DNA of 64,000 nucleotides from an uncultured delta proteobacterium (lineage in GTDB: Bacteria > Desulfobacterota > Binatia > Binatales > Binataceae). A program made the translations under genes and the position numbers. Location: contig CAWEEQ010000004.1 in the NCBI GenBank assembly GCA_963808235.1, forward strand, positions 2,368,001-2,432,000. Direction: 5' to 3'. Below the pieces are notes generated by a model. That model was given only the letters and a program-made list of their open reading frames with translations. It had not been told where the DNA came from and did no database searches. Within the stretch, counting starts at the first letter, position 1. Every line of letters begins with the position of its first letter. Shown here piece after piece: positions 7,027 to 25,860 of this stretch.

Positions 7027-7036
7027 CGCATCGTGC

Positions 7037-10120: not shown

Positions 10121-11007
10121 AGTTTGCGCTCCACTACAAATGTCGCGAGCTCGCGCAGCGCAATCGCGCGCTCGTCGAAGCTCGCGAGTGCGCAATGAGC
10201 CCGGCTTTCGAGCTCGCGCGCCAAGTCGAGCGAGCGCTCGACTCCCAAAATTGCGGGATAGGTTGCCTTCCCACGCTCGCTGTCTTTCTGCGTCCGCTTG
10301 CCCATCTGCTCGGAGTTGCCCTGGACGTCCAGCAGGTCATCGACAACCTGAAACGCGAGACCGAGCGCACGCGCGTACGCGTCGAGCGACTCGATTTGCG
10401 CCGGGGTCGCGCCACCCATCCGCGCGCCGCCGCGTACCGACGCCAAAAATAGCGCGCCGGTCTTTCTGCCGTGCAGTTCCTCGAGCTCCTCGAGCGTTTT
10501 CGTCTTGCCCTCGCCGAGCAGATCGATCACCTGCCCGCCGACCATGCCCTCCGATCCCGCGGCACTCGCAAGTTCCGCAATCGTCTCGAGGACAATCGGC
10601 GCCGCCACGCCCGCCGCGGTTGCGCGCGCAAGTACCTTGAACGCGTCGGTCAGCAGCGCATCGCCCGCCAGCGTCGCGATCGCCTCGCCATAGACTTTGT
10701 GATTGGTCGGCCGCCCGCGGCGAAAGTCGTCATCGTCCATGCACGGCAGATCGTCGTGAATCAGCGAGTAGGTGTGAATCATCTCCACCGCGCACGCCAG
10801 ATCGATCGCCGCCACGATCTTCCCGCCGACCGCCTCGCACGACGCGAGCGCGAGCACCGGCCGCAGCCGCTTGCCGCCCGCGAGCAGACTGTAGCGCATC
10901 GCCTCCATCAGGCGCGCCGAGGCGCCCGCGGGAGTGTCCACGCATTTCGCAAGCGCCAACTCAACCAACTGGGCGCGTTCTTTTAGATAGTGGTTGAGAA
11001 CGAACAC
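10117..11007 (-). CDS. ispA: Farnesyl diphosphate synthase / polyprenyl synthetase
   Basis: GGKRLRP, LIHDDLPCMDDDDFRRG (FARM), FQVVDDLLD (SARM). Confidence 0.93.
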   Translation of the reverse strand: MFVLNHYLKERAQLVELALAKCVDTPAGASARLMEAMRYSLLAGGKRLRPVLALASCEAVGGKIVAAIDLACAVEMIHTYSLIHDDLPCMDDDDFRRGRPTNHKVYGEAIATLAGDALLTDAFKVLARATAAGVAAPIVLETIAELASAAGSEGMVGGQVIDLLGEGKTKTLEELEELHGRKTGALFLASVRGGARMGGATPAQIESLDAYARALGLAFQVVDDLLDVQGNSEQMGKRTQKDSERGKATYPAILGVERSLDLARELESRAHCALASFDERAIALRELATFVVERKL

Positions 11008-11089
11008 TCTTCTTTTTTCTTTTCTCTCCCGATGGGGATAAATTTCCCCGGCGGAGTCCGGAACAGGCGCAGGCGTTGAAATCGCCCGG

Positions 11090-12094
11090 TTAGGATACGT
11101 AGTGACGGACCATCCGCCACGAGTCTTTCAGATTCTTGCCGAAATCGAGCGCGACCGTGCCTTCAAAGCCCGAGTGCAGCTTGCAATCGCGGCAGCGAAA
11201 ATCCTGCTTGGTCCGGTAGTACTCCCAATCGGTCGCCTCGTGCATTTCCGAAAGGGTCTTGTAGTGACCGTTGGTTATCAAATAGCACGGCCCCTTCCAT
11301 CCCTGCGGATTGCGCGTCACCGTGGTCCACGGGCTGCACTGCAGATCGCGCTTGCCAACCAGGTAATCAAGATAAATAGGCGTGTTGATTATCTTGTAGT
11401 CGTCGGACATGTCGCGAACTTTCACGAACTTCGCCGGCATCTCTTCTTTCTTCAGGTACTCCTCGTCGTTGTTAAGCACCTGGTAATGATATCCGGGGCT
11501 GAGCAGCATCCCATCAACACCGAGACTCGTCAGGTACTTGACCATCGACTCCAGTTCCTCGCTGGTGGTCTCGCGGAAGACGGTCGTATTCGTCTGAACG
11601 CGATAGCCCTTCTCCTTCAGCATCTTGATCATCTTTACGACGATATCGAAATGCCCATGCCGGTCGACGACGCGATCGTTGGTCTCGCGCATCCCGTCCA
11701 GATGCAGGTTGAAGCTCAAGTACGGACTTGGGCCTACTTGCTTGACGAAGCGCTCGAGCAAAATCGCATTGGTGCAGATCATGACGTGACGCTTTTGGTC
11801 CTCGATCAGGCCCATGGTCAGCGCCGCGATATGCTTGTACATCAGCGGCTCGCCGCCGCAGATTGAAACGATCGGAGCGCCCGCTTCCTCGGCCGAATGC
11901 AACGCCTCATCGAGCGGCATCATGTCGCGAATCGTTTCCTTGTACTCGACTATTCGCCCGCATCCGATACACGCGAGATTGCACGCATGCAGCGGCTCGA
12001 GCATCAACACCAACGGAAAATATTTTTCCCCCGCACGCTTCTTCGCGCGCATGTACTTGCCGAGATCGATCATCTGTCTTAGAGGAATGCGCAT
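11090..12094 (-). CDS. hpnH: Adenosyl-hopene transferase (radical SAM)
   Basis: FPLVLMLEPLHACNLACIGCG, GWKGPCYL, CRDCKLHSGFE; hopanoid operon. Confidence 0.92.
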   Translation of the reverse strand: MRIPLRQMIDLGKYMRAKKRAGEKYFPLVLMLEPLHACNLACIGCGRIVEYKETIRDMMPLDEALHSAEEAGAPIVSICGGEPLMYKHIAALTMGLIEDQKRHVMICTNAILLERFVKQVGPSPYLSFNLHLDGMRETNDRVVDRHGHFDIVVKMIKMLKEKGYRVQTNTTVFRETTSEELESMVKYLTSLGVDGMLLSPGYHYQVLNNDEEYLKKEEMPAKFVKVRDMSDDYKIINTPIYLDYLVGKRDLQCSPWTTVTRNPQGWKGPCYLITNGHYKTLSEMHEATDWEYYRTKQDFRCRDCKLHSGFEGTVALDFGKNLKDSWRMVRHYVS

Positions 12095-12136
12095 GATGGG
12101 CCGTTCTCCCTGGTAACTGGAAATATGTCCGGCGGC

Positions 12137-12805
12137 TTAGGCGCCGCCGGGTGATGAAGATGATGGCGACGACTTTGACGCATCGCCGAACAGCCATTCC
12201 CCGACCATCGCGATGGCCCCTTCCGGGTCGACCGCCTGCGCGCCGAGGAACAAATACTCGATCAGCAAACCGTTGAGCGCCGAGAGCAGGAAACCGGCTG
12301 CCACCTCGGGCGCCGAACGCCGCGGGCAGATTCCTTTCTTTTGCGCGCTCGCGATCAACTCGATCAGCATCGTCCGATAGCCGGTGTAGAGCTTGAGCAC
12401 CTGGTCGTTGAGGCTCTCGGATAGCTGCTGATCGTGGAGCATCTGCGCCAGGAAAAAGCGCACCGAGCTCGCATTGTCGCGTACGAAAAGCAGGTAGAAC
12501 TCGACCAGCTTCTGTATCTGGGCGCGCTCGTCCATCGCCGCCGCTTCTTCGGCAAAGTCGATAACGTACGGCTCGAGCAGCCGGTTCAGGACCGCGACGA
12601 ACAGCTCTTCCTTGGTCTTGAAATGCCAGAAAATCAGCGCCTTGCTGACCCGCGCCTCGCGCGCGACCTCCGACATCGACGTCTCATGAAAGCCACGACT
12701 CGCGAACAGGTTCATCGCGGCCTTCAGGATTTCGTCACGTGAATCCTGCGACTGCGTTCGTGGTTCGTTAGAGCTAGCGCCTACTTTGACCTGCGATGCG
12801 CCCAT
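12137..12805 (-). CDS. TetR/AcrR family transcriptional regulator
   Basis: N-terminal HTH ILKAAMNLFASRGFHETSMSEVAREARVSKALIFWHFKTKEEL. Confidence 0.93.
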   Translation of the reverse strand: MGASQVKVGASSNEPRTQSQDSRDEILKAAMNLFASRGFHETSMSEVAREARVSKALIFWHFKTKEELFVAVLNRLLEPYVIDFAEEAAAMDERAQIQKLVEFYLLFVRDNASSVRFFLAQMLHDQQLSESLNDQVLKLYTGYRTMLIELIASAQKKGICPRRSAPEVAAGFLLSALNGLLIEYLFLGAQAVDPEGAIAMVGEWLFGDASKSSPSSSSPGGA

Positions 12806-12927
12806 AATACCTATCTGAAACCCTTATCTTCCCCGTTTTCCGCATGGCGCCGGGCGGCCCGTCCTTAGCCAAATTCGGCCTACGACGCGCCGTTTCCAGC
12901 CGCAGCCGACTCCAACCGCCGATACCG

Positions 12928-13009
12928 CTAACCATTCGGTCAATCGAAGATTTATCGTCACACTGCCGAAATGTCAAGAGCATACAGTCCGAGCGGTCAG
13001 TCGGTCAGG
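12928..13009 (-). promoter_or_regulatory. Putative sigma70 promoter of the tetR-hopanoid operon with TGACCG-containing operator-like sites
   Basis: Minus strand TTGACA (12977-12972), 17 nt, TAAATC (12954-12949); imperfect palindrome TTGACCGAATGGTTAG just downstream and repeated CTGACCG upstream. Confidence 0.5.
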
Positions 13010-13051
13010 AAGGTTGTCGATGATGTTTCACGTGCGAAACTCGTTCGCTAA

Positions 13052-14095
13052 CTAGCTGATTTGATGGGTTAAATTTATTTCAAGTCCGTCGTGGACGGCC
13101 GACCGTCGGGCAGCGTCGATAAGCTCAAGCGCCGTCCGCGCCTCGGCCAGGTTGCGCCGCGCCGTCGGCGATTCGGTTCCTTCGGTAACTGCCTGTTCAA
13201 ACTCCGCCGCTACCGCGCCGAACCACGCCGAATGGTAGGAGTCGTCGGCAACGTCGGCGACGGACAGATTCTCGGCCGCATCAGTGCGGTCGGTCAGAGT
13301 CACGCGATCGCCTTCGATCTCTATACATGCGCGCTCGCCGTAAATTACCGCTGAAGTTCGCCGAATCGGCGCCCGCCACGATAGATGCGCCCGCGCGATG
13401 CATCCCGAAGAAAACGCGACGCGAAGGTCGGCCAGGTTTTCCGCATCGCCACCGGCGGGCAATTCAAGATGCGCCGAGATAGCGGTCGGCACGTCGCCGG
13501 CCAACAGCCATTGCATCAGGTAGAAGACGTGCCATCCGTGATCGATCAAAATTCCGCCGCCGGACTTCGCCGAGGCTCGCCACTTCCCGCCGCTACCGCC
13601 CGCACCCGCAGGCTCGGTACGGAGTCGATCGATCGAGATGAATCGAATGTCGCCAAGCCGCCCCGCTTCGATAGCTCTGCGCGCGACCGCATACGCCGGC
13701 GCATACTTCCAATTATGCACGCACATCAGCACCCGCCCCTGATTCGCCGCAAGCGCCGCGAGTTCATCAAACTCGCCGAGCTCGAGACATAGCGGCTTCT
13801 CGACGATCACATGCGCGCGAGCATTCAGCGCCGCGCGAACCGACTCAGCATGAAACCCAGGCGGACTGGCAATATCCACAAAGTCAGGCGACTCCCCGTC
13901 AAGCATCAACTCCAGGTCATCATAAACACGAACACTCTTAATCAGCCTAATAGCCTCATGCCGCCGCTCGGAGATTGGATCGTGAACAACTGTAAGCGAG
14001 ATATTCTCCCGCGACCACCAGCCAGGAAGATGCGCCCGAGCAGCAACCTCCCCAAACCCAGAAATCGCCCCCCGCAATTTCGCGCTAGTCACCAC
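13052..14095 (-). CDS. Gfo/Idh/MocA family oxidoreductase (inositol dehydrogenase-like)
   Basis: GFGEVA Rossmann motif, VIVEKP, GGGILIDHGWH. Confidence 0.9.
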   Translation of the reverse strand: MVTSAKLRGAISGFGEVAARAHLPGWWSRENISLTVVHDPISERRHEAIRLIKSVRVYDDLELMLDGESPDFVDIASPPGFHAESVRAALNARAHVIVEKPLCLELGEFDELAALAANQGRVLMCVHNWKYAPAYAVARRAIEAGRLGDIRFISIDRLRTEPAGAGGSGGKWRASAKSGGGILIDHGWHVFYLMQWLLAGDVPTAISAHLELPAGGDAENLADLRVAFSSGCIARAHLSWRAPIRRTSAVIYGERACIEIEGDRVTLTDRTDAAENLSVADVADDSYHSAWFGAVAAEFEQAVTEGTESPTARRNLAEARTALELIDAARRSAVHDGLEINLTHQIS

Positions 14096-14155
14096 CGCGC
14101 CGATCAGTTTCAGCTAAAGCGACGATACGAGCAACCGCCGCATCCGGACTCTTCA

Positions 14156-14232
14156 GTGGCACAGGCGTCTCCGCCCTGATTGATGCGAAAAAACTAATGG
14201 CACGGGCGTCCCTGCCCGTGAGATTGATTGCG
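14156..14232 (+). repeat. Tandem pair of REP-like hairpins
   Basis: GTGGCACAGGCGTCTCCGCCCTG-ATTGATGCG (14156) and ATGGCACGGGCGTCCCTGCCCGTG-AGATTGATTGCG (14197); the second forms a perfect CACGGGC/GCCCGTG stem. Confidence 0.65.
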
Positions 14233-14301
14233 CGAGCTTCCTGCTCGCGCCACCAACCCTCACTCCTCCTCAGATGCCCAAACCCATCGGTACCTACCTA
14301 C

Positions 14302-14541
14302 TCAAATCTCATCACGCAAAATTCGCGTCCCGACCACCAATGCAGTCGCGCCCGCGGTGGACATAAGTACCGCGCCGACGAAGTTATGCGCACGCACGCC
14401 CAAGATCTCGAAAATTATTCCGCCGACCACGCCGCCCACCAGCCCGAGCATGATGTCGCAGAACATCCCGTAACCGACGCCGTTGATTATTTTCCCGGCG
14501 AGCCATCCGGAGACCAGCCCGACGATTATCCATTCAAACAT
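14302..14541 (-). CDS. GlsB/YeaQ/YmgE family stress-response membrane protein
   Basis: WIIVGLVSGWLAGKII...DIMLGLVGGVVGG pattern; RBS GGAGG upstream of ATG 14541. Confidence 0.85.
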   Translation of the reverse strand: MFEWIIVGLVSGWLAGKIINGVGYGMFCDIMLGLVGGVVGGIIFEILGVRAHNFVGAVLMSTAGATALVVGTRILRDEI

Positions 14542-14723
14542 GATTCGCGATCCTCCCGGTTGATACCCGCGCCACCCCAAAAGTGGCGACAGCTTTCATC
14601 AAGCGTTAGAGCAAGAGCGCTGCCATCGGAAATCGCGATAGTTTCTGGGGGAATCGTGCGCAGTCGCGGGCAGTAACGATGCCGCATTCGAACTGCACGC
14701 CAGATTGTGACTGCGGCAGTATT

Positions 14724-15575
14724 TTAAATGTAAAGCGACGCCATCTTCTTGAGCGTGCCTTCCGAGGACTCGAAGGTGAGATCGCCAAGGCCGGCGACGA
14801 AGCTATGCGCGCCGGCGGCGGCGAACTCCTTCAACCCGTCCTGCACTTTGGCCCGATCGCCGGGGATGCCGCCCATTATCGTGATGTCGAGCTTTGAGAA
14901 ATCGCGTCCGACGGCGGCGCACTCGCGCTTGAGTTCATCGACTCGTTCCTTGAACGCGGGAGCATTCAAGCGAATTGGACACCATCCGTCGGCCCATTTC
15001 GCAACGCGTTTCAGCGCGTTCTTGTCGAGGCTGCCGATCAACACCGGCGGCCCGGACTTCTGCACCGGCTTGGGAAAGGAACGAATCGACGGGAACTTGA
15101 CGTAACGGCCGTCGACTTCGGACTGGTCTTCGGTCCAGAGCTTGCGCATCGCCGCGACCATCTCCGCCGTTTGCGTCCATCGGCGCGGGAAATCGACGTG
15201 GAACAATTCGCTCTCCTCCCGCAGCCACCCGGCGCCAATCCCGAACAGGACGCGGCCGCCCGAGTATGCATCCAAAGTTGCGATTTGCTTGGCGAGCGCG
15301 ATCGGCTCGTGCTCTGGGACCAAACAGATTCCGGTCGCGAGTTTCAGATTCTTCGTTACCGAGGCTGCCATGCTGAGCGCCACGATTTGATCGCCCATCT
15401 GATGATACACCGGCGGAATCGGGCCGCCGCCGGGAAACTGAGTTTTGGGATTGGAGGGCACCGCAGGATGCTCCGGAACCCAGATCGATTCAAAGCCGAG
15501 CGATTCGGCAACTCGCGCGAACTCCGCGGGATGCGCATTCTTGCCGGTAAAGGGAGTGAGTAGACCGATTTTCAT
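14724..15575 (-). CDS. LLM class (probably F420-dependent) oxidoreductase
   Basis: GFESIWVPEH, LAKQIATLDAYSGGRVLFGIGAGWLREE, PKPVQ. Confidence 0.88.
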   Translation of the reverse strand: MKIGLLTPFTGKNAHPAEFARVAESLGFESIWVPEHPAVPSNPKTQFPGGGPIPPVYHQMGDQIVALSMAASVTKNLKLATGICLVPEHEPIALAKQIATLDAYSGGRVLFGIGAGWLREESELFHVDFPRRWTQTAEMVAAMRKLWTEDQSEVDGRYVKFPSIRSFPKPVQKSGPPVLIGSLDKNALKRVAKWADGWCPIRLNAPAFKERVDELKRECAAVGRDFSKLDITIMGGIPGDRAKVQDGLKEFAAAGAHSFVAGLGDLTFESSEGTLKKMASLYI

Positions 15576-15600
15576 TGGATACCTCCGCGAAGGTAACGGC

Positions 15601-16077
15601 TCATTTCCAGGAGAAAAACTCTTGCGCGAATACGAACTTGCCGACGCCGGCAGCCTTGCCCGCCTGTCTGTCGACTTCCTGATCGCCGACCATCGTCGAT
15701 GAAGTCAGATCGACGCCGTATAACTCGGCAAGCTCGGTGATCATGCCGCCCTTGGGCTTGCGGCATTCGCATTTGTCGTCGTCGACGTGCGGACAGACCA
15801 GCCACCCGGTGAGGATGTCGCCGAGCTGGCGGTCGAGTTCCACGAGCGCGGCTTCGACGGCTTCCCGCTTGAACCATCCGCGCGCGATTCCGGACTGGTT
15901 GGTGACGACGAACATCAGATGGTCGTGCATCGGGCGGAGTTTCTCCGCCACGTTCGGCAGCAACTGGACGATCACGTTGCCCTTTGCATCGAGTGGCAGC
16001 GAGCGCGTCTCATTCAGCTTGACCAGCGTGCCGCCGAGATCGAAAAACAGCGCCGCGTTTCCATTCGGATTGGACAT
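15601..16077 (-). CDS. HAD-IIIA phosphatase (GmhB/HisB-N like)
   Basis: FDLGGTL, VTNQSG, CPH...CECRKP, MVGD; the second Asp of motif I is replaced by Gly. Confidence 0.85.
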   Translation of the reverse strand: MSNPNGNAALFFDLGGTLVKLNETRSLPLDAKGNVIVQLLPNVAEKLRPMHDHLMFVVTNQSGIARGWFKREAVEAALVELDRQLGDILTGWLVCPHVDDDKCECRKPKGGMITELAELYGVDLTSSTMVGDQEVDRQAGKAAGVGKFVFAQEFFSWK

Positions 16078-16092
16078 CGAAAAAAACTTATC

Positions 16093-17460
16093 TTACGCGT
16101 GGCGCCAGTCAACGTGGTCGCGGACGTGCGCAAACACCTCGTCGAGGATTGCGATGCCGGCTTCCGCCTGCGCCTCCGTGATCACCAGCGCGGGATTGAT
16201 TCGAATCTTGGGGAAGTAGCCCATGATGACCAGTCCGCGCTTCAGGCATTCGGCAAAAATCAGCTCGGTGACTTTTTTGCCGAGCTGTTCTTTGCTCTTG
16301 AGATCGCGGACCAGCTCGACGCCGATCAGCAGACCCTTGCCACGAACGTCGCCGATGAATTCGTATTTTTCCTTGAGTTGCACGAGCCGCGAGAGCATCT
16401 GCGCGCCGACTCTGCGCGAATTCTCGACCAGGTGCTGTTTTTGAATCGCGCGGATCGTTTCCGCGACCGCAACCGCGGCAAGCGGGTTCCCGCCGTAACT
16501 CGATGACGACGCGCTCGGTTTCGAAAACGGCTCGGCCTTGCCGAGTTCGTCGCCGAGCAACACGCCTGAGACAGGGAAGCCGCTGCCCATGCCCTTGCCG
16601 ACGGTCACGATGTCGGGCTTTACGCCGCTGTGATCGACTCCCCACCACTTTCCGGTCCGTCCGAAGCCGGTGATCATCTCGTCGGCGATCAGCAGCGCGC
16701 CGAAATCCTTGGCCACGGATTTTACCGCGGGCATCCAGTCGTCGGGCGGTATCACGTTGCCGGCGGTCCCCTGCATCGGCTCCGCCACGATTGCCGCGAG
16801 CGCGCCGCCGCTGCTCATCTTGATCTGTTGGCGCGCGAAATCGACGCAGTAGAGGCCGCAGTCGGGATACTTCAACTGGAAGGGACACCGGTAGCAGTCC
16901 GCATACGGCATCGTGTACTGCCCGCCCTGCAATGGTCCGTAGCCTTGCTTGGATTCATCGCCGATAAGGCCGATCACGCCGCCGGTCTTGCCATGGAATC
17001 CACCCCAGAAACTCGCGACTTCGTGTTTTTTGGTCGCCGAGCGCGCTAGCCGTATTGCTGCTTCGACTGCTTCGGCGCCGCCGCTGTACAGATGCGCACG
17101 ATTGAGGCCGGCGGGTGCGACTTCGCTCAGAAGCTTGAATGCCGCGGCCCGCTCCTTCGTTGCAAACGTGCCGACCATCAGCCGCGACGCCTGATGCGCC
17201 AGCGCCTCTGCGAGCGCAGGATGCCCATGGCCCAGGCTCGCCACCGCTACCCCGGCGAAGAAATCGACGTAGGTGTTGCCGTCGGCGTCGGTGAGCGTAG
17301 CGCCTTCACCATGATCGAAGGCGACACCGGCGAGCAGCGAAATCCGCTGGCGGCCGGGCGCGATATAGCGCTGTTCGGTGTCGAAAATTTCTTTCGACTT
17401 GGGACCAGGGATGGCAGTTTTGATTGCCGGCAGTTTACCGTCGATGTTTGAGCTGGCGAT
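16093..17460 (-). CDS. Class III PLP aminotransferase
   Basis: DADGNTYVDFFAG, FHGKT, AEPMQG, LIADEMITGFGRTG, DIVTVGKG. The open frame extends upstream of the ORF-track start to an ATC at 17460 preceded by AAGGA. Confidence 0.9.
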   Translation of the reverse strand: MASSNIDGKLPAIKTAIPGPKSKEIFDTEQRYIAPGRQRISLLAGVAFDHGEGATLTDADGNTYVDFFAGVAVASLGHGHPALAEALAHQASRLMVGTFATKERAAAFKLLSEVAPAGLNRAHLYSGGAEAVEAAIRLARSATKKHEVASFWGGFHGKTGGVIGLIGDESKQGYGPLQGGQYTMPYADCYRCPFQLKYPDCGLYCVDFARQQIKMSSGGALAAIVAEPMQGTAGNVIPPDDWMPAVKSVAKDFGALLIADEMITGFGRTGKWWGVDHSGVKPDIVTVGKGMGSGFPVSGVLLGDELGKAEPFSKPSASSSSYGGNPLAAVAVAETIRAIQKQHLVENSRRVGAQMLSRLVQLKEKYEFIGDVRGKGLLIGVELVRDLKSKEQLGKKVTELIFAECLKRGLVIMGYFPKIRINPALVITEAQAEAGIAILDEVFAHVRDHVDWRHA

Positions 17461-17473
17461 TTGCTTTAGTTCC

Positions 17474-18310
17474 TTATTTTAATTTCTGGCCCGTCACTGG
17501 GCGACTCAGCAGACCTATCGCGCGCCGCGCGATCGCGCGAGCGGCAAGCGCCCGGACCCGGCTGTAACTCGGCCAGTCGTTAAAGTCGATAATCGCAAAT
17601 CGATCGCCACTCAAGACCGCGTCTCCGCCCCATACCTCAAGACCGAGCGCTGCGGCGGCGGTCGAGGCGGCCTCCGACAGCGCGCGGACGCTCGCTTCGG
17701 GGACTTCCTCTTCGGGATGTGCGCTGAAATATGCGTTCCCGCTCACGCCATAAAATTTTACGACGCGGCCGGCGACTTCCTGCTGCAGGTAGGCGAAACG
17801 AATCCGCCGCCGTGCGAAATCAGCGAGTATCGATTCGATCTCGGCGCGCTCGGACGCGCGCTGCACGTCTTTGGGGCCAAGCGCGTGGAGATCGCCACGC
17901 TTTACGAACACGCCCGCCGACAGGTCGAGGCCGGCGAGTTTGCGCGCGTCCAATGGCTCGTCGGTCGCGACCAGCGCACCCACCGGCGTCGGTACGCCGG
18001 CGCGTTCGAGGCCGGGCGCGAGCAGGTCGCGATAGCAGTTGCGAATCGAGAGCGCGGAATTGACCGCAATCGCGCCCGCCTGCTCAGCCTCGGCAAGACG
18101 CTTGAGAGCTCGACCACCCTGGCACATCGGCAGAACTATGTCGGCACGCGCGGGCGCGCCGTTGCCAAAGCTGGCCGCGTCGATAGCCGCAGTCTCGACC
18201 CCTTCGCGCTTCAATTCCGTCAGGGTCGCGTCCATGATGGCCGCGTCGAGCTCGACCTTGCCGGGAGAAAATTCGGGTTCGCGGTAGATTCCCAAAGCGC
18301 GATAATTCAT
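17474..18310 (-). CDS. ATP-grasp fold protein, function unknown
   Basis: GVPTP, FVKRGD, LQQEVAGRVVKFYGV, LGLEVWGGD, IIDFNDWPSY. Confidence 0.7.
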   Translation of the reverse strand: MNYRALGIYREPEFSPGKVELDAAIMDATLTELKREGVETAAIDAASFGNGAPARADIVLPMCQGGRALKRLAEAEQAGAIAVNSALSIRNCYRDLLAPGLERAGVPTPVGALVATDEPLDARKLAGLDLSAGVFVKRGDLHALGPKDVQRASERAEIESILADFARRRIRFAYLQQEVAGRVVKFYGVSGNAYFSAHPEEEVPEASVRALSEAASTAAAALGLEVWGGDAVLSGDRFAIIDFNDWPSYSRVRALAARAIARRAIGLLSRPVTGQKLK

Positions 18311-19032
18311 TGGGTGCTCCGTAGCGCACGCCGGGCGGCATCGAGATCCGGCTCTTCGTCAACGTCAATCGCACCATCGATCTCGATTGCGCCGAGATGG
18401 AATTGCCGTTCGATCAGCATCGCAAGAAACCGGCGGAGCGCGTCGAGCCCGGCGCCTCGAGCTTCGCCGGCGAAGTCGAAAATCCGGGTCGACAAAAAAT
18501 AAAGTCCCGCCGTTACCGTTTGAGTCTGAACGCCGCCCAGCCGCACGATCAACCCATCTACTGTTACATCGGCGAAAAGCGCCCGGTTATCGCCGCGCCA
18601 TCGCGTAACGGCCAACACACCATCGAGATTTTTGTCGTTGGATAGCTCAATTTTTCGGCGCGCGTCATTAACAAATCTCGCCAATTCTGTCTGCGGAATT
18701 ACAGCGTCCACCGTCGCCGCGAGGAACCATCCCGGTTCCAGCAGCTCGCCGAGCGCGAGCATCGTCTCCATCGAATTGGCTGTGTTACGAACGACCAGTT
18801 TGACGTCGGGTGGGGTCGGGAGCCTCATTTCATCGGCGATACGCGCGGTTTCGGAGTTGATCACCGCGACGACAGATGATGCGCCCGCCGCGATCAGCGC
18901 GCGTGCCTGCCGCACCAGCATCGTCTCGCCGCCAAGCTCGACGAGCGGTTTTGGCAAGTCGGCACGCGTCGATTTGCGCAGCCGCTCACCGCGGCCCGCC
19001 GCGATGATTGCTCCTTGCAATTTCGTCACCAT
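18307..19032 (-). CDS. NTP transferase (sugar/polyol-phosphate cytidylyltransferase-like)
   Basis: AIIAAGRGERL...PKPLV signature; C-terminal IDVD. Confidence 0.85.
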   Translation of the reverse strand: MVTKLQGAIIAAGRGERLRKSTRADLPKPLVELGGETMLVRQARALIAAGASSVVAVINSETARIADEMRLPTPPDVKLVVRNTANSMETMLALGELLEPGWFLAATVDAVIPQTELARFVNDARRKIELSNDKNLDGVLAVTRWRGDNRALFADVTVDGLIVRLGGVQTQTVTAGLYFLSTRIFDFAGEARGAGLDALRRFLAMLIERQFHLGAIEIDGAIDVDEEPDLDAARRALRSTQ

Positions 19033-19775
19033 TGGATCCGCCCGACTTCATCGATCGAGCCGATCGTAATGTCCGCAAGAGCGTCCGCACCCTCGGGAGG
19101 GGTGCGATTCAAATCCGTGCGCAGCCAAACAGTTCTGAGGCCGAGTTTCTTCGCGGGTGCGCAATCTTTGCTCAGCGAGTCGCCGATTATGGCAGTTCTC
19201 TCGGCAGTCGTTTGGCCTGCGGCTCGCATTTTCTTCAACGCGAATTCGAAAATTCCGGGTTCGGGTTTAAAAATTCCTAGCCGCGACGAATCCGCGATCG
19301 CGTCGAAGAATCGATCGAGGCGCGCGTCGGCGAGAATCCGATCGAGATTCCCATAAAAATTCGACACCACGCCCATCCGGTAACGGCCTCGGAGCGCGGC
19401 GAGGACGTCGCGGCTGTGCTCCAATCCGGCCAACGTCTCACGCACGAATGAACTCGTTACCGCCTCGACTACTCGATGACGCCCCTTTGCGCCGCCTTCG
19501 TCCAGTAACGCCCGGATTTTCGGCGGCCCGCTTTGCCGAAGATATTCAAACTGATGGCCAACGAGGAATCGCACCAGGTCGATCAAGCCGAAGCGAGTGA
19601 CGATCCGCGTGGCCCCATAGCCAATCCTGGTCGCATGGTCGAAGGCCGGGTCGAGTTCCGCGCGGCTGATCTCGACTCCTGCGGCGCGATAATCCGCGAG
19701 GAACCGGTCGAGCCAATGCGCGGGCCCGTCGAGCGTGCCGCCGAAATCGAACAGGATTGCCTCTATGTTTGCCAC
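19026..19775 (-). CDS. HAD family hydrolase
   Basis: FDFGGTLD, VVSNFYGN, KPEPGIF, IGDSLSKD. Confidence 0.88.
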   Translation of the reverse strand: MANIEAILFDFGGTLDGPAHWLDRFLADYRAAGVEISRAELDPAFDHATRIGYGATRIVTRFGLIDLVRFLVGHQFEYLRQSGPPKIRALLDEGGAKGRHRVVEAVTSSFVRETLAGLEHSRDVLAALRGRYRMGVVSNFYGNLDRILADARLDRFFDAIADSSRLGIFKPEPGIFEFALKKMRAAGQTTAERTAIIGDSLSKDCAPAKKLGLRTVWLRTDLNRTPPEGADALADITIGSIDEVGRIQW

Positions 19776-20248
19776 GAACGCTCCAGCTTAACAGTCGTGA
19801 TACCCAGCCTCTAGCATGCGGTTTGAAAACCCGATGAAAGGGTCACATCGCAAGCCGCGTACCATCGATGATCCCGCGATCTGGAGCCGATTTCGTCCAT
19901 CAATGCTTCGCTCGCTCCGGACTCGCTTTCGCAACAGGCACCTGGCGCCCCGCAGACCAGCTTGAGGGCGCAAAAAATGCTGTCCGTTGCTATTCCGAGT
20001 GTAGACCTACGTCGATTTGACGGTGTTCTCCAAGTAACGCGCTGACCATCAAGAGTTCGTCGGTATAGTTCTCGGCTGGTGCGGGTTGGCGGAGGGTGTG
20101 GACTGCTGAAATTTGGCCCTCGTCAAACAAGGTTCCTGAAGGCTATAATTTAGGAGATGAAAGCCCGGCGGAACCAACAATCAAACTCATAATTCGGGCC
20201 CGGAGCTAGTAGCCGGGCTACTTCCGCTGCGGTTACCCCTGTGTTACG

Positions 20249-21484
20249 TTGACCGCGACCTGTACGCGGCTGAACGAAAACGGTTTTACTAGAACGTTGT
20301 TAATAGAAACTGCACTAATCGCCGCGCCTAACCGCGCGGACAATGCGATTTTCGGGCGCCCGCTCCTGGAGCGGCTGATGATTAATTGCGAGCGCGTCGG
20401 CGTGAAGCGGTTCGTGATCGCGGCGCCATCGGCACAGCATCAGGAACTCGGACACGCGATGGGCCGGTTCAAAAATCTTGACACGGTCTCAATCGTCGAG
20501 TCGTTCGGCGAGGTCTTGGACGCCAGTAGCGCGAATGGGGCGGCAATCGACCCGTCGGCGCCTTGCGTCACATTTTCAGGAAACCTGGTTTTCGCGAAAT
20601 CGCATCTGACGCGGATTTTCGCTTTGCACGCGGCGAGTCCTGAAAGGGTGCATCGCGCGGAAAGCACCGACCGCGATCACGGCGGAGAGATCGCAACCGG
20701 ACCGATCGGTCAGATTCTCGAACGCGCCGGAATCGCGACTATGCTCACGCCGGCCGCGTCCCGCCTGTTGCCATTCGCACTGAACGGACGGCCTGAGGAT
20801 CGTGAGGAGGCGGAGCTGCGGCTGGCGCAAGCCGTCCGCGAGGAATCCGCACACAAGGACGCGCCGATGGCGCGCTGGGTCGATCGGCGTGTCTCGTGGC
20901 GAATCAGCTACTGGCTCGCGACGCACACCTCGATCACGCCCAACATGGTCACGGTCGCAAACACCACGTTCGGACTCGGATGCGCATTCATGTTCGCGGT
21001 GCCGAATTACTGGGCGCGGCTGTTCGCGGCGATATTCTTTCTCATTTCCGTAACGATTGACGGTGTGGACGGCGAGCTCGCACGCCTCAAGATGCAGGAG
21101 AGCGATTTCGGCGGCTCGCTGGATGTCATCACTGACAACGTCGTTCATGTCGGAATCTTCATCGGCCTGCTCGCGGGATGCTATCGCGCGAGCCAAAGCG
21201 CTGCGTACCTGTACCTGATTCCGATTCTGCTGATTGGATTCGCGATGTGCGCCTATGCGACCTGGCGCGCCTTCAAGTTCAAGGGCGAGCAGGCCGCGGC
21301 GTGGCTGGACAAGGTCGATCGATGGAGCGGGCGCGACTTCGCGTACCTGCTGGTGCTGTTGGCTGCAATCAATCGGCTGGAGTGGTTCGCGTGGGGCACC
21401 GCGTTTGGCACCTATGTCTTCGCAGTCGCGCTCATCTGGATCACCGGCCATTCACGATCTCCGTTGTCTGCTGAGAGCCCGTAG
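20249..21484 (+). CDS. CDP-alcohol phosphotransferase with a degenerate N-terminal nucleotidyltransferase-like domain
   Basis: TPNMVT and DGVDGELARLKMQESDFGGSLDVITD match DxxDGxxAR-G-xxxD-xxxD; N-terminal IFGRPLLERL segment. Confidence 0.88.
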   Translation: MTATCTRLNENGFTRTLLIETALIAAPNRADNAIFGRPLLERLMINCERVGVKRFVIAAPSAQHQELGHAMGRFKNLDTVSIVESFGEVLDASSANGAAIDPSAPCVTFSGNLVFAKSHLTRIFALHAASPERVHRAESTDRDHGGEIATGPIGQILERAGIATMLTPAASRLLPFALNGRPEDREEAELRLAQAVREESAHKDAPMARWVDRRVSWRISYWLATHTSITPNMVTVANTTFGLGCAFMFAVPNYWARLFAAIFFLISVTIDGVDGELARLKMQESDFGGSLDVITDNVVHVGIFIGLLAGCYRASQSAAYLYLIPILLIGFAMCAYATWRAFKFKGEQAAAWLDKVDRWSGRDFAYLLVLLAAINRLEWFAWGTAFGTYVFAVALIWITGHSRSPLSAESP

Positions 21485-21511
21485 CTGAGCGTCGCTGCGG
21501 GCGGAGGAAGT

Positions 21512-22843
21512 ATGAAAGGTAAGAAGCCGAAACTCCTGTTGGTGCAACCTACGACCGTCCATCTGGACGGCACTCCGCACAAAACCCGCTGGCGGCTGAT
21601 TATGGGGCTGATGATTCCCCTGATGGCGGGACTGACTCCGGACGATTTCGACGTGACGCTGTGCGACGAGCGACTCGAGGAAATCGATTTCGACGGCGGC
21701 TGGGACCTGGTCGGGATGACCACCACGATCGGCGCGTCGCTGCGCGCTTATCAGCTAGGCGACGAATTTCGCCGGCGCGGAATCCCGGTAGTGTTCGGCG
21801 GATTTCATGCAACTCTGCAGACCGAAGAAGCGCTCCATCATTGCGACGCGGTCGTGCAGGGAGAGGCTGACCTGGTCTGGCCCGAGCTGCTGCAGGACTG
21901 GCAGGACGGCAAGCTCAAGCAAGTCTACAAAGCCGACAAGATGCACGATCTGAAAAATCTCCCACGCCCGCGCCATGAGCTGCTCAAGCTCAACCGCTAC
22001 CTGTTCAAAGCGGTGCCGGTGCAGGCGAGCCGGGGATGCCCATATCGATGCTCGTTCTGCGAAATTCCGGTCTTCTATGAAGGCGCGTACCGGACCCGGC
22101 CTATCGAGGACATCGTCGAAGAGATCAAGCAGGTGGTGAAAATCACCGGCTTCAGGCGCTTCCAGTTTATCGACGATCAGATCACCGGCAAGCATAAGTT
22201 CGCGCGTGAGCTATTCAAGGCGCTCGAGCCCTTGAACATCCGGTTCTCATGCCTGTGGACGATCAACTCGAACCATGACGACGACTTGCTCGAGCTGGCG
22301 GCCAAGGCGGGAATCTTCCACGTCAATATCGGGGTCGAATCGATCAGCCAGGAAAGCCTGCTCTCGATGAACAAGATCCAGAATCACGCGGGGCAGTATA
22401 AGAAGCTGCTGAAGAAGCTCGAGAAATACGGCATCTACTATTCGCTCAATTTCCTGTTCGGGCTGGAAGAAGATCATCCCGGCATCTTCGACGACACGCT
22501 CAAGTTCCTGCATGAGGTCAAGGCGCCCGAGGCGTTCTTCAACACGGTGACGCCGCGCCGCGGCACGCCGATGCGCACGCAGCTCGAGAACGAGGGCCGC
22601 GTGATCATCCCCGACGCCGACCTCTACACCAACAACTTCCGCTGCATGTTCGTGCCCAAGAACATGTCGCCGCAGGAAGTCGAAGAAGGCGTGTGGCGAT
22701 GCACGAAGGAATTCTACTCGCTGAAGTCGATGTTCCGCCGGCTGCTGATGCCGCCCGGGAAGTTCACCTGGCAGGGCCTGACTGAGAACATGCTCTTCTA
22801 CTGGGGCGCGAAGCGGCAGATCGATCCGGTCGATTACTATTAG
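21512..22843 (+). CDS. B12-binding-domain radical SAM protein
   Basis: VVFGGFHAT, GEAD, SRGCPYRCSFC (CxxxCxxC); RBS GGAGG. Confidence 0.9.
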   Translation: MKGKKPKLLLVQPTTVHLDGTPHKTRWRLIMGLMIPLMAGLTPDDFDVTLCDERLEEIDFDGGWDLVGMTTTIGASLRAYQLGDEFRRRGIPVVFGGFHATLQTEEALHHCDAVVQGEADLVWPELLQDWQDGKLKQVYKADKMHDLKNLPRPRHELLKLNRYLFKAVPVQASRGCPYRCSFCEIPVFYEGAYRTRPIEDIVEEIKQVVKITGFRRFQFIDDQITGKHKFARELFKALEPLNIRFSCLWTINSNHDDDLLELAAKAGIFHVNIGVESISQESLLSMNKIQNHAGQYKKLLKKLEKYGIYYSLNFLFGLEEDHPGIFDDTLKFLHEVKAPEAFFNTVTPRRGTPMRTQLENEGRVIIPDADLYTNNFRCMFVPKNMSPQEVEEGVWRCTKEFYSLKSMFRRLLMPPGKFTWQGLTENMLFYWGAKRQIDPVDYY

Positions 22844-22855
22844 GCCGTCCGGTCT

Positions 22856-23171
22856 TTGATCCTAAAGACTTCCGCCATCCTCGTGCTTGGCCGCGCTGCT
22901 TGAAGTCGGCGGCGATGCGCTCATCCGAATCGGGCTGCGCGGAACGGGCTACTCGATCGTAGCCGGCGCGCTGACGCTGTTCGCATACGGCGTAGTGGTG
23001 AATCTGAGCGGTGTGGATTTCAACCGCCTGATGGGAATCTACATCGCGGTCTTCTTCGTAGTGTCGCAGGCGATCTCGTTTATTCTCTTCAAGCAGATTC
23101 CCGACGACAGAATCCTGCTCGGCGGCGGATTTATCGTCGCCGGCGGCCTCCTGATCCTGCTGATGACCTGA
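22856..23171 (+). CDS. Small 4-TM membrane protein (YnfA/SMR-like); apparent +1 frameshift near 22886
   Basis: AALLEVGGDALIR...YG...GIYIAVFFVVSQ; hydrophobic N-terminus from TTG 22856 in the adjacent frame. Confidence 0.6.
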
Positions 23172-23451
23172 TCCGCTTGCCCGCTCAGGATTTGAATTCG
23201 GCCTTCAGCCGATCCGCGACGAACATCTTCAGCAGCGATTGATAGGGCACGTCGCGCTTGTTTGCCAGGAGCTTCAAGCGATCCAGCATTGGCTTCGGCA
23301 GACGGATCGAGATGGTCTGGGACGAGGGCTTCAGGTTGGGCAGTCGCGCGCCTGGCCTCGCGCCAGTCAATGTAATCCGTCGAGTCGTGAGACGCCCAAA
23401 ACTTGCGCTCGGCATCTTCGCTCCTGAATTTCGGGTAGTGGGTCAGTTTGC

Positions 23452-23676
23452 CGATTTACGCGGTTAACCAACGCGTTTTCAAAGAAAGTCGAAAACCATA
23501 TGCATGCGCTTTCGATCTACTTCATGCACTATAGTTTCGTGCGTATCCATCAGACGCTCCGATGCTCGCCCGCGATGGAAGCTGGCGTCACTGACCGGCT
23601 CTGGTCGCTTGTAGATATGGTCGGAATCGTGGACGAATGGGAAACGAGCCAGAAGGCAGAGCAGCAGAGTGCATAA
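23452..23676 (+). pseudogene. C-terminal remnant of an IS1-family transposase
   Basis: Manual translation RFTRLTNAFSKKVENHMHALSIYFMHYSFVRIHQTLRCSPAMEAGVTDRLW...*; no start codon, abuts the left TIR. Confidence 0.8.
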
Positions 23677-23904
23677 ATGAACCAGAACGGCCTTCCGATG
23701 TTAGTTCTTGTTGTCGGCTTCGGTCTCTGGTGGGTACTAGCGCCCCGAAGCGTGATCCGTTTCTACTGTTGGTTCTATCCAAGTCCCAAAAATGCTTTTG
23801 CACGAGCAACGCCGCTTAGGATTAGGCTGGCGGGACTGACGTGGTTAATTTTGCTCGCTTGGGTTCTTATCTCGGTAGCACTTCACCCGCGGACTTCAAA
23901 CTGA
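23677..23904 (+). CDS. Small 2-TM passenger protein, unknown function
   Basis: 75-aa ORF whose ATG immediately follows the transposase TAA; its TGA lies inside the right TIR; two hydrophobic segments. Confidence 0.55.
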   Translation: MNQNGLPMLVLVVGFGLWWVLAPRSVIRFYCWFYPSPKNAFARATPLRIRLAGLTWLILLAWVLISVALHPRTSN

Positions 23905-23967
23905 CCCACTTCCGAATTTCGGCAGCGGTTTCTTCATGATGGTCGCATTTAGTATAGCGCGGATGAT

Positions 23968-24813
23968 TCAGGGCTGCAGGACGGTATTGTCTATCAGCCG
24001 CGTCTTGCCGACGCGCGCGGCGATCGCAATCAGGATCGGCCGGTCCAGCGACGGGTCCGGCGCGAGGGTTTCGGCGTCGACCGCCTCGACGTATTCAACC
24101 GCCACATTTTTCATCCGCTTGAGCACGCGCGTCGCCGCGAACACGATCTCCTCGGTGCAACACGCGCCGGTGCGATGCTTTTCGCGGGCCGCGCGGAGCG
24201 CGAGGCTCAGCGCAAGCGCATCTTCGCGCTCGGCGGGCGAGAGGTATGCGTTGCGCGAACTCATCGCGAGGCCGTCCTTCTCGCGCACGATGGGCACCGG
24301 GACAATTTCGACATCGAAGTTCAAATCGCGCACCATCCGCTGAATCGAGCGCAACTGCTGGAAGTCTTTTTCGCCGAAAACTGCGAAATGCGGCTTCACG
24401 ATGTTGAACAGTTTCGCGACCACCGTGGTAACGCCGCGAAAATGGCCCGGGCGATTGCTCCCGCAGAGGCCGCGCGTGACCTCGGTCACTTCGACCCAGC
24501 TCTGCGAGTCCAGCGAGTACATCGTCGAAGGCTCCGGCGCGAATACGATGTCCACCGGCACGGTTTGCAACATCGCGCAGTCACGCTCGAAGTCGCGCGG
24601 ATAGCGTGCGAAATCCTCGCCCGGCCCGAATTGGGTTGGATTGACGAAGATCGACGCGACCAGAATTGAGGACCTTCGGCGCCCTTCGCGCATCAGGGTC
24701 AGATGCCCATCATGCAGATAGCCCATCGTCGGCACTAGCGCGATTCGCTCGCCCCTCTTGCGAGCAGTCTCGGCGCACCGGGTCATCTCGTCGGGCGAAG
24801 TAACAATCTCCAT
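23968..24813 (-). CDS. panC: Pantoate--beta-alanine ligase
   Basis: VPTMGYLHDGH, SIFVNPTQF, RPGHFRGV, FGEKDFQQ, GLAMSSRN, RLIDN; own RBS GGAGG and ATG at 24813. Confidence 0.95.
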   Translation of the reverse strand: MEIVTSPDEMTRCAETARKRGERIALVPTMGYLHDGHLTLMREGRRRSSILVASIFVNPTQFGPGEDFARYPRDFERDCAMLQTVPVDIVFAPEPSTMYSLDSQSWVEVTEVTRGLCGSNRPGHFRGVTTVVAKLFNIVKPHFAVFGEKDFQQLRSIQRMVRDLNFDVEIVPVPIVREKDGLAMSSRNAYLSPAEREDALALSLALRAAREKHRTGACCTEEIVFAATRVLKRMKNVAVEYVEAVDAETLAPDPSLDRPILIAIAARVGKTRLIDNTVLQP

Positions 24814-24815
24814 CG

Positions 24816-25650
24816 CTAACTCCTCCGATTCTCGCTGTAGCAATGCTCGCGGCGCGGGGAACGCGCGCTCCTTCACTTCGCGCACGTAGGCTGTGGCAGC
24901 GGCCGTGGCGTCGTTCCACAGATGCGCGAACGGCTTGGCGAAGCGCGGCGCACACCCTTCGACAAGGCCGAGCATGTCATGCATCACCAGCACCTGGCCG
25001 TCGCAATGCGGCCCGGCGCCGATGCCGATAGTCGGGACCGCGACGCGCGCGCTGATCTCGCGGGCCAGTGACGGTGGCACGCCTTCCACGACGATCGCGA
25101 ACGCGCCGGCCGCTTCCAGCGCGGCCGCGTCGTCGAGCAGCCGCTGGCGGCATCCTGGTTTGCGGCCCTGCACGCGATATCCACCCATGCGATGAATCGA
25201 CTGCGGGGTAAGGCCGATATGGCCCATCACCGGTATATCAACCGAGGTGATTCGCCGGATCGTCTCGGCAACTGCGATGCCGCCTTCGAGCTTCACCGCC
25301 TCTGCGCCGCCCTCCTTGACCAGTCTGCCCGCGTTGCGAAGCGCTTCCTCGGAACTGATTTGATAGGAGAGGAACGGCATGTCGGCGATGACCAGCGCGC
25401 GCCGCCGGCCGCGGGCGACTGCGCGGGTGTGATAGATGACTTCGTCGATCGTGACGGCAAGGGTGCTGTCCTCGCCGCGCACCGCCATCGCGAGGCTGTC
25501 GCCCACCAGGAGCGCATCGACGCCGCAGTTGTCGAAGATTCTCGCAAATGGAAAGTCGTACGCCGTCAGCATCGTGATCGGCTGGCCGGCAGCCTTCATC
25601 CGCGCGAAATCCGGAACCCGGACTTTGTCCTGCGAGGTATTTGTTTTCAA
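24816..25650 (-). CDS. panB: 3-methyl-2-oxobutanoate hydroxymethyltransferase; apparent +1 base near 24849 fuses it to panC in the ORF track
   Basis: MLTAYD, LVGDSL, ADMPF, AVKLEGG, GHIGLTPQ, IGIGAG, DGQVLV; corrected end reads FPAPEHCYSENRRS*. Confidence 0.93.
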
Positions 25651-25667
25651 ACGATTCAGCCGCTCCC

Positions 25668-25860
25668 AAAAAAAATCGGGACTGCGCGCGTCGGCAACCC
25701 CGTATGAGAGCGCACTCGCTCGAGCGAGCGCTCAGAATCACTCGGAGTCCCGGTCACCAACATCGGATCCAGGCGCGAGCAGAACGTTATGTCTTTTGCC
25801 TCCACTCCGGAGGCGCTCACATCACCCAAGTCTCGCCGGAAGAAAGTCTTCTCGACGGAC
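25668..25860 (-). ncRNA. Structured panB leader resembling the pan RNA motif, with a U8 tract before the RBS
   Basis: Two stems, each with a 5' bulged A and ending in GAC: CGTCG-A-GAAGA/TCTTC-CGGCG (25830-25860) and CCTGG-A-TC/GA-CCGGG (25747-25775); AGTCCCGA-T8 at 25683-25668. Confidence 0.6.

Follow-up and report, generated by a model that had tools for sequence, protein, structure and literature searches.

Inositol lipids are rare in bacteria, and a second, cytidine diphosphate (CDP)-inositol route to them is so far a genomic prediction only. In the main text of Heaver et al. 2022 (PMC9246714) such a route is proposed for a three-gene cluster (BVU_RS13095, RS13105 and RS13115), in which CDP-inositol would be made and transferred to diacylglycerol, the functions being unconfirmed. 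The same text likens the cluster to the Kennedy pathway, states that B. vulgatus and P. veroralis make inositol phosphoceramide without the PIP-synthase cluster, and describes effects of the inositol lipids of gut Bacteroidetes on capsule and host fitness (PMC9246714). Here we describe a related gene cluster at positions 13052-22843 of a 64,000-nucleotide stretch of DNA, hereafter the window (G000:C4:2368001-2432000), which belongs to a 4.59-Mb assembly in four contigs (G000) from a soil bacterium of the uncultured Binataceae; near-identical relatives of its proteins are named Candidatus Binatus or Binataceae. We think that it may be an aminating variant of the B. vulgatus-type putative CDP-inositol lipid cluster, a reading to which we give slightly less than an even chance, and functions are predicted in both clusters. 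The core genes of the window, and the presumed source of the cyclitol, are listed below.

19026-19775, minus strand: HAD-IA phosphatase, first gene of the operon (Pfam Hydrolase, 55.8 bits, and HAD_2); core.
18307-19032, minus strand: MobA-like nucleoside triphosphate (NTP) transferase, predicted CTP:cyclitol-phosphate cytidylyltransferase (NTP_transf_3, 42.6 bits); core.
17474-18310, minus strand: ATP-grasp protein of 278 aa, recognised by fold only, from a family without a Pfam model; core.
16093-17460 (listed as 16093-17244), minus strand: class III (GabT-like) aminotransferase (Aminotran_3, 280.5 bits); core of the aminating variant.
13052-14095, minus strand: Gfo/Idh/MocA NAD(P) oxidoreductase (GFO_IDH_MocA, 71.5 bits, and C3 domain, 74.6 bits); core of the aminating variant.
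20249-21484, plus strand: two-domain CDP-alcohol phosphotransferase (CDP-OH_P_transf, PF01066, 53.9 bits), divergent from the operon; core.
47348-48667, minus strand: ino1, myo-inositol-1-phosphate synthase (MIPS; PF07994, 328.4 bits, and PF01658, 110.7 bits); presumed cyclitol source.

The locus of Phocaeicola vulgatus ATCC 8482 (L079) holds, in this order, genes for an NTP transferase, an ATP-grasp protein, a phosphotransferase, LPG_synthase_TM, a HAD protein, an MFS transporter, a PfkB kinase and MIPS. This order fits the BVU_RS13095/RS13105/RS13115 series of the main text of PMC9246714, the ATP-grasp gene and the flippase-like gene filling the two unnamed slots; the terms 'ATP-grasp' and 'aminotransferase' were not found in that main text. 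We also noticed that the MFS transporter and the PfkB-family kinase, which lie between the HAD and MIPS genes (L079, 11524-13673), could import and phosphorylate inositol. By tblastn, the NTP transferase, HAD protein and phosphotransferase of the window were homologous to those of L079 and of other Bacteroidota loci, with 25-34% identity. An initial annotation of the window had read an NTP transferase, a CDP-alcohol phosphotransferase and a phosphatase as the logic of CDP-inositol chemistry, and this holds: the module is homologous to the B. vulgatus-type cluster and its phosphotransferase matches IPCT-DIPPS best. The word 'undescribed' in the same annotation remains apt for the aminating extension and for the ATP-grasp gene and does not apply to the three-gene core, which the main text of PMC9246714 presents as a putative pathway. 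In the open-access literature searched, we did not find the constancy of the ATP-grasp gene, the gene fusions, the dehydrogenase-aminotransferase extension or the spread across phyla, all of which are described below.

To follow the cluster within the class, we searched 41 Binatia genomes, G000 among them; two of the genomes counted within the genus (G018 and G023) are unpublished, and no claim depends on those two alone. It was found that 28 of the 41 genomes carry the ATP-grasp gene. Among the carriers are 23 of the 24 relatives from the same genus, together with every one of the 4 genomes in families f2, f5 and f10. Aminotransferase orthologues of at least 59% identity (59-63%) occurred in exactly these 28 genomes, and elsewhere there were paralogues only (32-40%). 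The oxidoreductase (E<=1e-40) was present in 29 genomes, which are the same 28 and one further genome that is 82% complete (G022). None of the ATP-grasp gene, the aminotransferase orthologue and the oxidoreductase was found in 12 Binatia genomes of seven other families. In four distant Binatia genomes, the order HAD, NTP transferase, ATP-grasp, aminotransferase, oxidoreductase and phosphotransferase is kept at 30-63% identity.

Additionally, a pattern scan across phyla was performed with one genome per species. It gave 594 confirmed loci, the best 80 of which were kept, and the window proteins were mapped onto these by tblastn; in many of the 80, a contig end truncates the locus. The NTP transferase was found in 70 of them, the HAD-IA protein in 68, the phosphotransferase in 63 and all three in 55. 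The aminotransferase was present in 38 loci and was accompanied by the oxidoreductase in 21, and ino1 lay within 8 kb in 26. Loci with both the aminotransferase and the oxidoreductase come from Binatia, Syntrophobacteraceae (including the isolate Desulfoferrobacter suflitae), Verrucomicrobiota, Ignavibacteria, Gemmatimonadota and two metagenome-assembled genomes (MAGs) of Bacteroidota. It is clear that the six core genes, for HAD-IA, NTP transferase, ATP-grasp, aminotransferase, oxidoreductase and phosphotransferase, keep their synteny across four Binatia families and five other phylum-level groups. Their grouping is far beyond chance, as they are found side by side again in other families and other phyla.

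One may also suppose that the product is a plain inositol lipid as in Bacteroides, and that the aminotransferase and the oxidoreductase have nothing to do with it. This would agree with the 38 of 80 loci in which the ATP-grasp module has no aminotransferase in the flank covered, and with the LLM gene and the small open reading frame (ORF) that part the oxidoreductase from the operon in the window. The aminotransferase, however, is placed inside the module in six phylum-level groups, between the ATP-grasp gene and the phosphotransferase or oxidoreductase gene, and in the Binatia the orthologues of both enzymes are restricted to families with the ATP-grasp gene; we consider an unrelated pair improbable. 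Among the side observations, a sulfotransferase and an O-methyltransferase were seen directly upstream of the cluster in a Syntrophobacteraceae MAG (L059, 4529-6499), which suggests that head-group tailoring varies by lineage.

The NTP transferase of the window matches the IPCT/DIPPS model weakly (NF041135, 29.8 bits) and carries an AAGRGERLR loop; passages of PMC12275187 name R16, K26 and D112 as residues of IMPCT. When 10 long homologues were scanned for fusions, seven joined the NTP transferase to the ATP-grasp protein, one (P0196) joined HAD, NTP transferase and ATP-grasp, one joined ATP-grasp and phosphotransferase, and one gave no match. Natural fusions therefore tie four parts of the module together.

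No Pfam (E<=0.001) or NCBIfam match was obtained for the 278-aa protein, and a Protein Atlas query returned 'hypothetical protein' clusters only; its family comprises 874 clusters at 50% identity (E<=0.001). An AlphaFold (AF2) model built from 103 homologues, with a predicted local distance difference test (pLDDT) score of 95.4, has a complete three-domain ATP-grasp fold. Foldseek matched the model to Ddl, ArgX/LysX, DcsG and ZmITPK1 at E values of about 1e-12 to 1e-13, and VIA gave RimK at Z 22.6 (root-mean-square deviation 3.1, 252 residues aligned) and LysX at Z 21.7, the scores of the best 50 rows levelling off in a plateau that reaches down to Z 19.8 and on which Ddl, CPS and PurK are found too. 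The name ATP-grasp, already given to the protein in the initial annotation, is borne out by the model and the fold searches only. The family profile matched PsnB-type ATP-grasp (3e-8), ITPK4 (8.6e-7), RimK (6e-5) and ITPK1 (1.3e-4), and the ITPK matches run through a C-terminal motif, [IV]DxN[DA]WPSF.

Foldseek, VIA and the profile searches do not separate a kinase from a ligase. The protein may act as a cyclitol kinase, for which we see a chance a little short of one half. This role gains indirect support from the NTP transferase-grasp fusions, and it is also favoured by the Bacteroides product, whose plain mass does not accommodate a ligated group. We found no account of an ATP-grasp protein in a CDP-inositol lipid pathway among open-access papers.

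Similarly, we examined the CDP-alcohol phosphotransferase, in which the catalytic motif is intact (DGVDGELAR...GGSLDVITD). Its start is uncertain, and gene callers give it 368 aa (P0394). Among solved structures, its sequence comes closest to AF2299 (3.6e-15) and IPCT-DIPPS (2.4e-9), and NF041135 (IPCT/DIPPS) is the best NCBIfam match, at 84.6 bits against a cut-off of 580 and over the C-terminal domain only. An AF2 model from 24 sequences (pLDDT 80.2) matched IPCT-DIPPS (4mnd) best in Foldseek, with an E value of 3.1e-10 over 456 columns and a TM score of 0.57. In hhalign, the N-domain was aligned with the NTP transferase family of the cluster at 82% probability, from a query alignment that held one mis-extracted row (L013). 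Foldseek independently supports such a nucleotidyltransferase-like domain, as the first 200 residues, taken on their own, match CobY, IspD and TarI, which are cytidylyltransferases. The glycine-rich GxGxR loop is a defining feature of an active nucleotidyltransferase. It is missing from this domain, which has AAPNRADN where the separate NTP transferase has AAGRGERL, so the domain is probably inactive, and its part is probably limited to binding the nucleotide or passing it on. A shorter phosphotransferase without the N-domain was found in Bacteroidota, Ignavibacteria and Gemmatimonadota. Among the six other CDP-alcohol phosphotransferases of G000, one reached 64.5 bits on the archaetidylinositol-phosphate synthase model, the cut-off of which is 180.

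The reading frame of the aminotransferase runs about 70 conserved codons 5' of the listed GTG, to about 17460, without ATG, GTG or TTG, and the window has CTA at the position where relatives start with TTG or ATG. The ATC at 17460, which follows AAGGA by about 10 nt, may be the start. Four soil DNA runs yielded short contigs only for this region; one contig, from a run that may be the source sample, is identical to the window over 17373-17643, and the missing start is therefore not peculiar to this assembly. In distant Binatia the oxidoreductase gene follows directly after that of the aminotransferase, and from its sequence the enzyme is predicted to be a cyclitol dehydrogenase; in comparison with it, solved inositol dehydrogenases score only about 56 bits. 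The pairing of a dehydrogenase with an aminotransferase, as envisaged in the initial annotation, was seen again in several phyla, where both travel together inside the module, and the aminotransferase lies near ino1 in six loci. We found no aminated inositol lipid in the open-access papers searched.

Taken together, the core genes are consistent with a route of the Kennedy type, in which an aminated cyclitol is activated with CDP and then passed on to a lipid, a proposal that we regard as tentative, if not far from evenly balanced, with the enzyme roles inferred. Inositol phosphate would be made by the ino1 product, and free inositol would be released from it by the HAD-IA phosphatase. The oxidoreductase would then convert one ring hydroxyl, giving an inosose, which the aminotransferase would turn into an inosamine. 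Re-phosphorylation of the cyclitol by the ATP-grasp protein is the least certain step. The NTP transferase would produce the CDP-cyclitol, and the membrane phosphotransferase would attach the phospho-cyclitol to a lipid alcohol, for example diacylglycerol or some other membrane lipid. The route assigns a role to every core gene and mirrors the Kennedy order of kinase, cytidylyltransferase and phosphotransferase.

Several observations weigh against this route, and the first of them concern the enzymes. The best fold matches of the ATP-grasp protein are ligases (RimK, LysX and Ddl) and not inositol-phosphate kinases, and in P. vulgatus the role of inositol kinase could belong instead to the PfkB protein encoded beside ino1. 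No close relative of the aminotransferase has been characterised, the best solved matches being GABA-aminotransferase-like proteins and racemases, and the oxidoreductase reaches 77.9 bits on the IolG model (TIGR04380), which has a cut-off of 355. Relatives in the IMPCT-like NTP transferase family use phosphocholine, phosphoglutamine or phosphoglycerate, according to passages of PMC12275187. Others concern the inositol itself. In the window ino1 is 25 kb from the cluster, and it lies within 8 kb in none of the 18 Binataceae-like loci. The Binatia pattern of ino1 differs from that of the cluster, as it occurs in the cluster-free families f6, f9 and f11 and is absent from the cluster-bearing f2, f5 and f10. 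In the core-bearing genomes G028 (100% complete) and G036 (99% complete) PF07994 was not found, and in G025 and G033, which likewise have the core, it reached about 20 bits only. In five further genomes with the extended cluster and no adjacent ino1, MIPS was found elsewhere in three and not found in two (G043 and G045, one of them a 4.2-Mb chromosome).

The findings on NTP transferase relatives, the IolG cut-off, the ino1 pattern and the four carriers without a detected MIPS (G028, G036, G043 and G045) would all suit an alternative in which the same CDP-alcohol machinery serves a non-inositol alcohol or acid, for example a hexose phosphate or a glycerate- or serine-type compound, which is oxidised, transaminated, CDP-activated and transferred. 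We consider this unlikely, though it deserves serious attention. Against it stand the 26 of 80 loci with ino1 near the module. Twenty of these, mostly Bacteroidota, are without the aminotransferase and six have it (L043, L048, L051, L062, L067 and L097); one of the six, from Verrucomicrobiae (L062), has the two-domain phosphotransferase type of the window with ino1 right behind it. In addition, ino1 is present in 24 of 24 same-genus genomes, away from the cluster, and inositol uptake could reconcile the MIPS-less carriers with the inositol reading. Co-conservation with ino1 had been chosen beforehand, in the initial annotation, as a test of its idea; it was seen throughout the same-genus genomes and failed in two distant Binatia and in two of the five other carriers, where MIPS was not found.

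The remaining difficulty is the acceptor, as the window has no lipid-transport gene beside the cluster and no LPG_synthase_TM, the nearest copy of which in G000 is about 300 kb away. The product could then be a soluble phosphodiester, an aminated relative of di-myo-inositol phosphate serving as a compatible solute. Such a product would also fit the phosphotransferase, whose nearest structure is the solute enzyme IPCT-DIPPS, followed by AF2299, and whose best NCBIfam match is IPCT/DIPPS; the HAD phosphatases would fit a final dephosphorylation like that of DIPP. On the other hand, that NCBIfam score is far under its cut-off, and Bacteroides strains with the core cluster make inositol lipids (main text of PMC9246714). 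Furthermore, LPG_synthase_TM (MprF flippase-like) lies inside related clusters (L079, L059, L038, L048 and L011), with P. vulgatus, Syntrophobacteraceae, Ignavibacteria and one distant Binatia genome represented, and related clusters also hold MlaC, MlaD with an ABC ATPase, or OEP genes. Because of these genes we favour a membrane lipid that is moved outward as the product, and a solute seems rather improbable to us.

Besides the core, the cluster of the window contains genes that appear to be Binataceae additions or are more loosely linked, and it adjoins a hopanoid operon.

15601-16077, minus strand: HAD-IIIA phosphatase, GmhB / histidinol-phosphatase-like (TIGR01656, 91.9 bits against a cut-off of 84.15); Binataceae add-on.
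14724-15575, minus strand: F420-type luciferase-like (LLM) oxidoreductase (TIGR03619, 235.2 bits against a cut-off of 166.9); loosely linked.
14302-14580, minus strand: membrane ORF of 92 aa, Transgly_assoc-like (PF04226, 21.1 bits, under the cut-off of 25.3).
21512-22843, plus strand: B12-binding radical SAM protein of an unnamed family (Radical_SAM, 69.3 bits, and B12-binding, 30 bits); Binataceae add-on.
2628-12094: hopanoid operon with SQS_PSY genes (hpnC/D/E-like), an amine oxidase gene, dxr, shc and hpnH (HpnH, 381 bits).

All genes named in the initial annotation were recovered at the same coordinates in the ORF list and in Pfam and NCBIfam scans, and we add to them the 92-aa membrane ORF, which sits between the LLM and oxidoreductase genes and is probably outside the pathway. 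The HAD-IA and NTP transferase genes overlap by 7 nt, the NTP transferase and ATP-grasp genes by 4 nt, and the later gaps measure 13-25 nt, so the genes from HAD-IA through LLM read as one operon. On the other strand, the radical SAM gene begins 27 nt 3' of the phosphotransferase gene. Rfam gave no match at E<=0.1 over 11000-26000 of the window, and the promoter and terminator scans gave no excess over shuffled sequence (3 against 2.8, and 9 against 11.4, respectively). No RNA run was listed as containing the 9.8-kb stretch.

Of the 18 Binataceae-like loci, 15 have the HAD-IIIA gene, which was not found in any of the remaining 62 loci. The LLM gene lies within 8 kb in 6 of the 18, and in G006 it is on the opposite strand and 4.5 kb off. 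Orthologues of the B12 radical SAM protein with at least 70% identity were present in 15 of the 18 loci and, at 91-98% identity, in 24 of 24 same-genus genomes, several of these matches being partial; other Binatia have paralogues only (30-39%). Its identity to proteins of Geobacter, Geotalea, Nitrospirota and Elusimicrobia is 53-59%, and in a metagenome scan all 80 loci kept were Binataceae-like (77-98%). Across Binataceae the protein is 88-98% identical, its neighbours 50-85%. These comparisons hint at a laterally transferred, strongly constrained unnamed family. HAD-IIIA, the radical SAM protein and the F420-type oxidoreductase are candidates for lineage-specific tailoring in Binataceae; that the radical SAM protein is a C-methylase of the head group is a guess, and so is an extra phosphorylation of the head group. 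A review of lipid-modifying radical SAM enzymes treats Cds and HpnJ as head-group enzymes and, in the passages we draw on, names none that acts on an inositol head group (PMC13459092).

The position of the cluster invites the idea of a hopanoid modification, in which the aminotransferase would be HpnO-like and act on the side chain and the radical SAM protein would be a hopanoid methylase or HpnJ-like. The cluster indeed adjoins hpnH and shc, near tetR, in the window and in three further loci (G017, L030 and L037), and in Desulfoferrobacter suflitae a true HpnJ gene (TIGR03471, 739 bits against 577.6) was seen directly upstream of the cluster HAD gene (L038, 5088-6548). This adjacency is not conserved, however. 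In G003, G006 and G013 a distance of 0.18-1.8 Mb separates the operon from the oxidoreductase gene, and in G006 there is no hopanoid gene within 10 kb of the operon. Squalene-hopene cyclase (PF13243) was not found in four of the five genomes searched that have the aminating cluster beside ino1, although they carry same-cluster aminotransferase orthologues, which argues against the HpnO-like function that the initial annotation had allowed for. The radical SAM protein scores far under the cut-offs for HpnJ (79.9 against 577.6) and HpnR (50.2 against 650), and likewise under those for PhpK (87.5 against 600) and BchE (106.8 against 481), and G000 has a separate hpnI-hpnJ locus. The suggested hopanoid link of the product is thus not supported, and we hold a hopanoid modification to be very improbable.

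Some observations on hopanoid genes may be added. The separate locus (L191; G000:C4:474000-493900) has a canonical pair of hpnI (324 bits against a cut-off of 310) and hpnJ (727 bits); the flanks hold genes for an RND efflux system, for an ArnT-like glycosyltransferase accompanied by a flippase-like protein, and for a kinase/cyclase-like protein of the TOMM type. The D. suflitae locus also holds LPG_synthase_TM, OEP, MlaC, a second radical SAM gene and a phosphotransferase; no hpnI match turned up in its flank, from a query set that held no hpnI or hpnK. In the hopanoid operon of the window, the SQS_PSY domain is split over two overlapping minus-strand ORFs, 4140-4742 (profile 92-219) and 4306-4944 (profile 2-107), which suggests that an hpnC/D-like gene is frameshifted, whether in the genome itself or through an error of assembly.

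Elsewhere in the window, the region 3' of the radical SAM gene (22887-23900) has a low GC content (0.565) and contains a YnfA/UPF0060-like ORF of 94 aa (under the cut-off), a CopG antitoxin gene (57.8 bits) and short ORFs that resemble mobile-element debris. It is followed at 23968-25650, on the minus strand, by a single ORF of 560 aa that comprises ketopantoate hydroxymethyltransferase (PanB) and pantoate-beta-alanine ligase (PanC). Further genes for coaX and coaBC were seen at 27913-28683 and at 46031-47293, the latter adjoining ino1. At 60262-63150 there is a protein of 962 aa with a Calx-beta domain and about 12 FG-GAP repeats, and the next gene, for an Ig-like (ASH/HYDIN-type) repeat protein, is cut off where the window ends.

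What emerges is a module that always carries an ATP-grasp gene and is bound by gene fusions, and a widespread variant of it that adds a dehydrogenase and an aminotransferase. In its broadest form, our proposal would be that soil and sediment bacteria of at least six phylum-level groups have amino-cyclitol (inosamine) phospholipids, made by a complete Kennedy-type pathway with a kinase from a new ATP-grasp family, that this ATP-grasp step is shared with inositol-lipid synthesis in the abundant gut Bacteroides and Prevotella, and that the head group of Binataceae is C-methylated by the B12 radical SAM protein; as a whole this is doubtful, and we would sooner expect it to fail in some part. If the prediction of an aminated head group holds, phospholipids of common soil phyla would have a new head group that contains nitrogen; it could be a biomarker, would alter the surface charge of the membrane and should shift the mass of the head-group fragment by about 1 Da. 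The carriers include the cultured Desulfoferrobacter suflitae DRH4, which has the extended cluster and, elsewhere in its genome, MIPS, and, for the plain form, the genetically tractable P. vulgatus as well as strains of Dyadobacter or Sphingobacterium.

Compared with known systems, the ATP-grasp protein shares an inositol context with the ATP-grasp kinases ITPK1 and ITPK4. It differs from them in having no match to Pfam Ins134_P3_kin, its similarity being limited to the last 50-90 residues, and ITPK1 is not among its 50 best VIA rows, which are ligases (Z 19.8-22.6). The phosphotransferase resembles IPCT-DIPPS (4mnd) and AF2299 (4o6m) in joining a cytoplasmic nucleotidyltransferase fold to a six-helix CDP-alcohol phosphotransferase with an intact motif; unlike in IPCT-DIPPS, its N-domain lacks the GxGxR loop, a separate NTP transferase gene does that job, and the acceptor is probably a lipid instead of inositol phosphate.

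In the aminocyclitol branch of aminoglycosides such as streptomycin and hygromycin A, there is an inositol phosphate synthase, a phosphatase, a Gfo-type inositol dehydrogenase, an aminotransferase and a kinase; the aminotransferases of these pathways are mostly of the DegT type, the kinases are not known to be ATP-grasp proteins and the products are antibiotics. The order of chemistry proposed here, to dephosphorylate, oxidise, transaminate and re-phosphorylate, is the same, whereas in the window the aminotransferase is of class III, the candidate kinase is an ATP-grasp protein and the product would be a CDP-activated head group. The B. vulgatus-type cluster, for its part, has no aminotransferase or oxidoreductase, lies beside ino1, which the window cluster does not, and has a shorter phosphotransferase without the N-domain (29% identity over 77 residues). 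It shares with the window the homologous NTP transferase, HAD protein and CDP-alcohol phosphotransferase, the same ATP-grasp family (L079) and the logic of a CDP-inositol donor.

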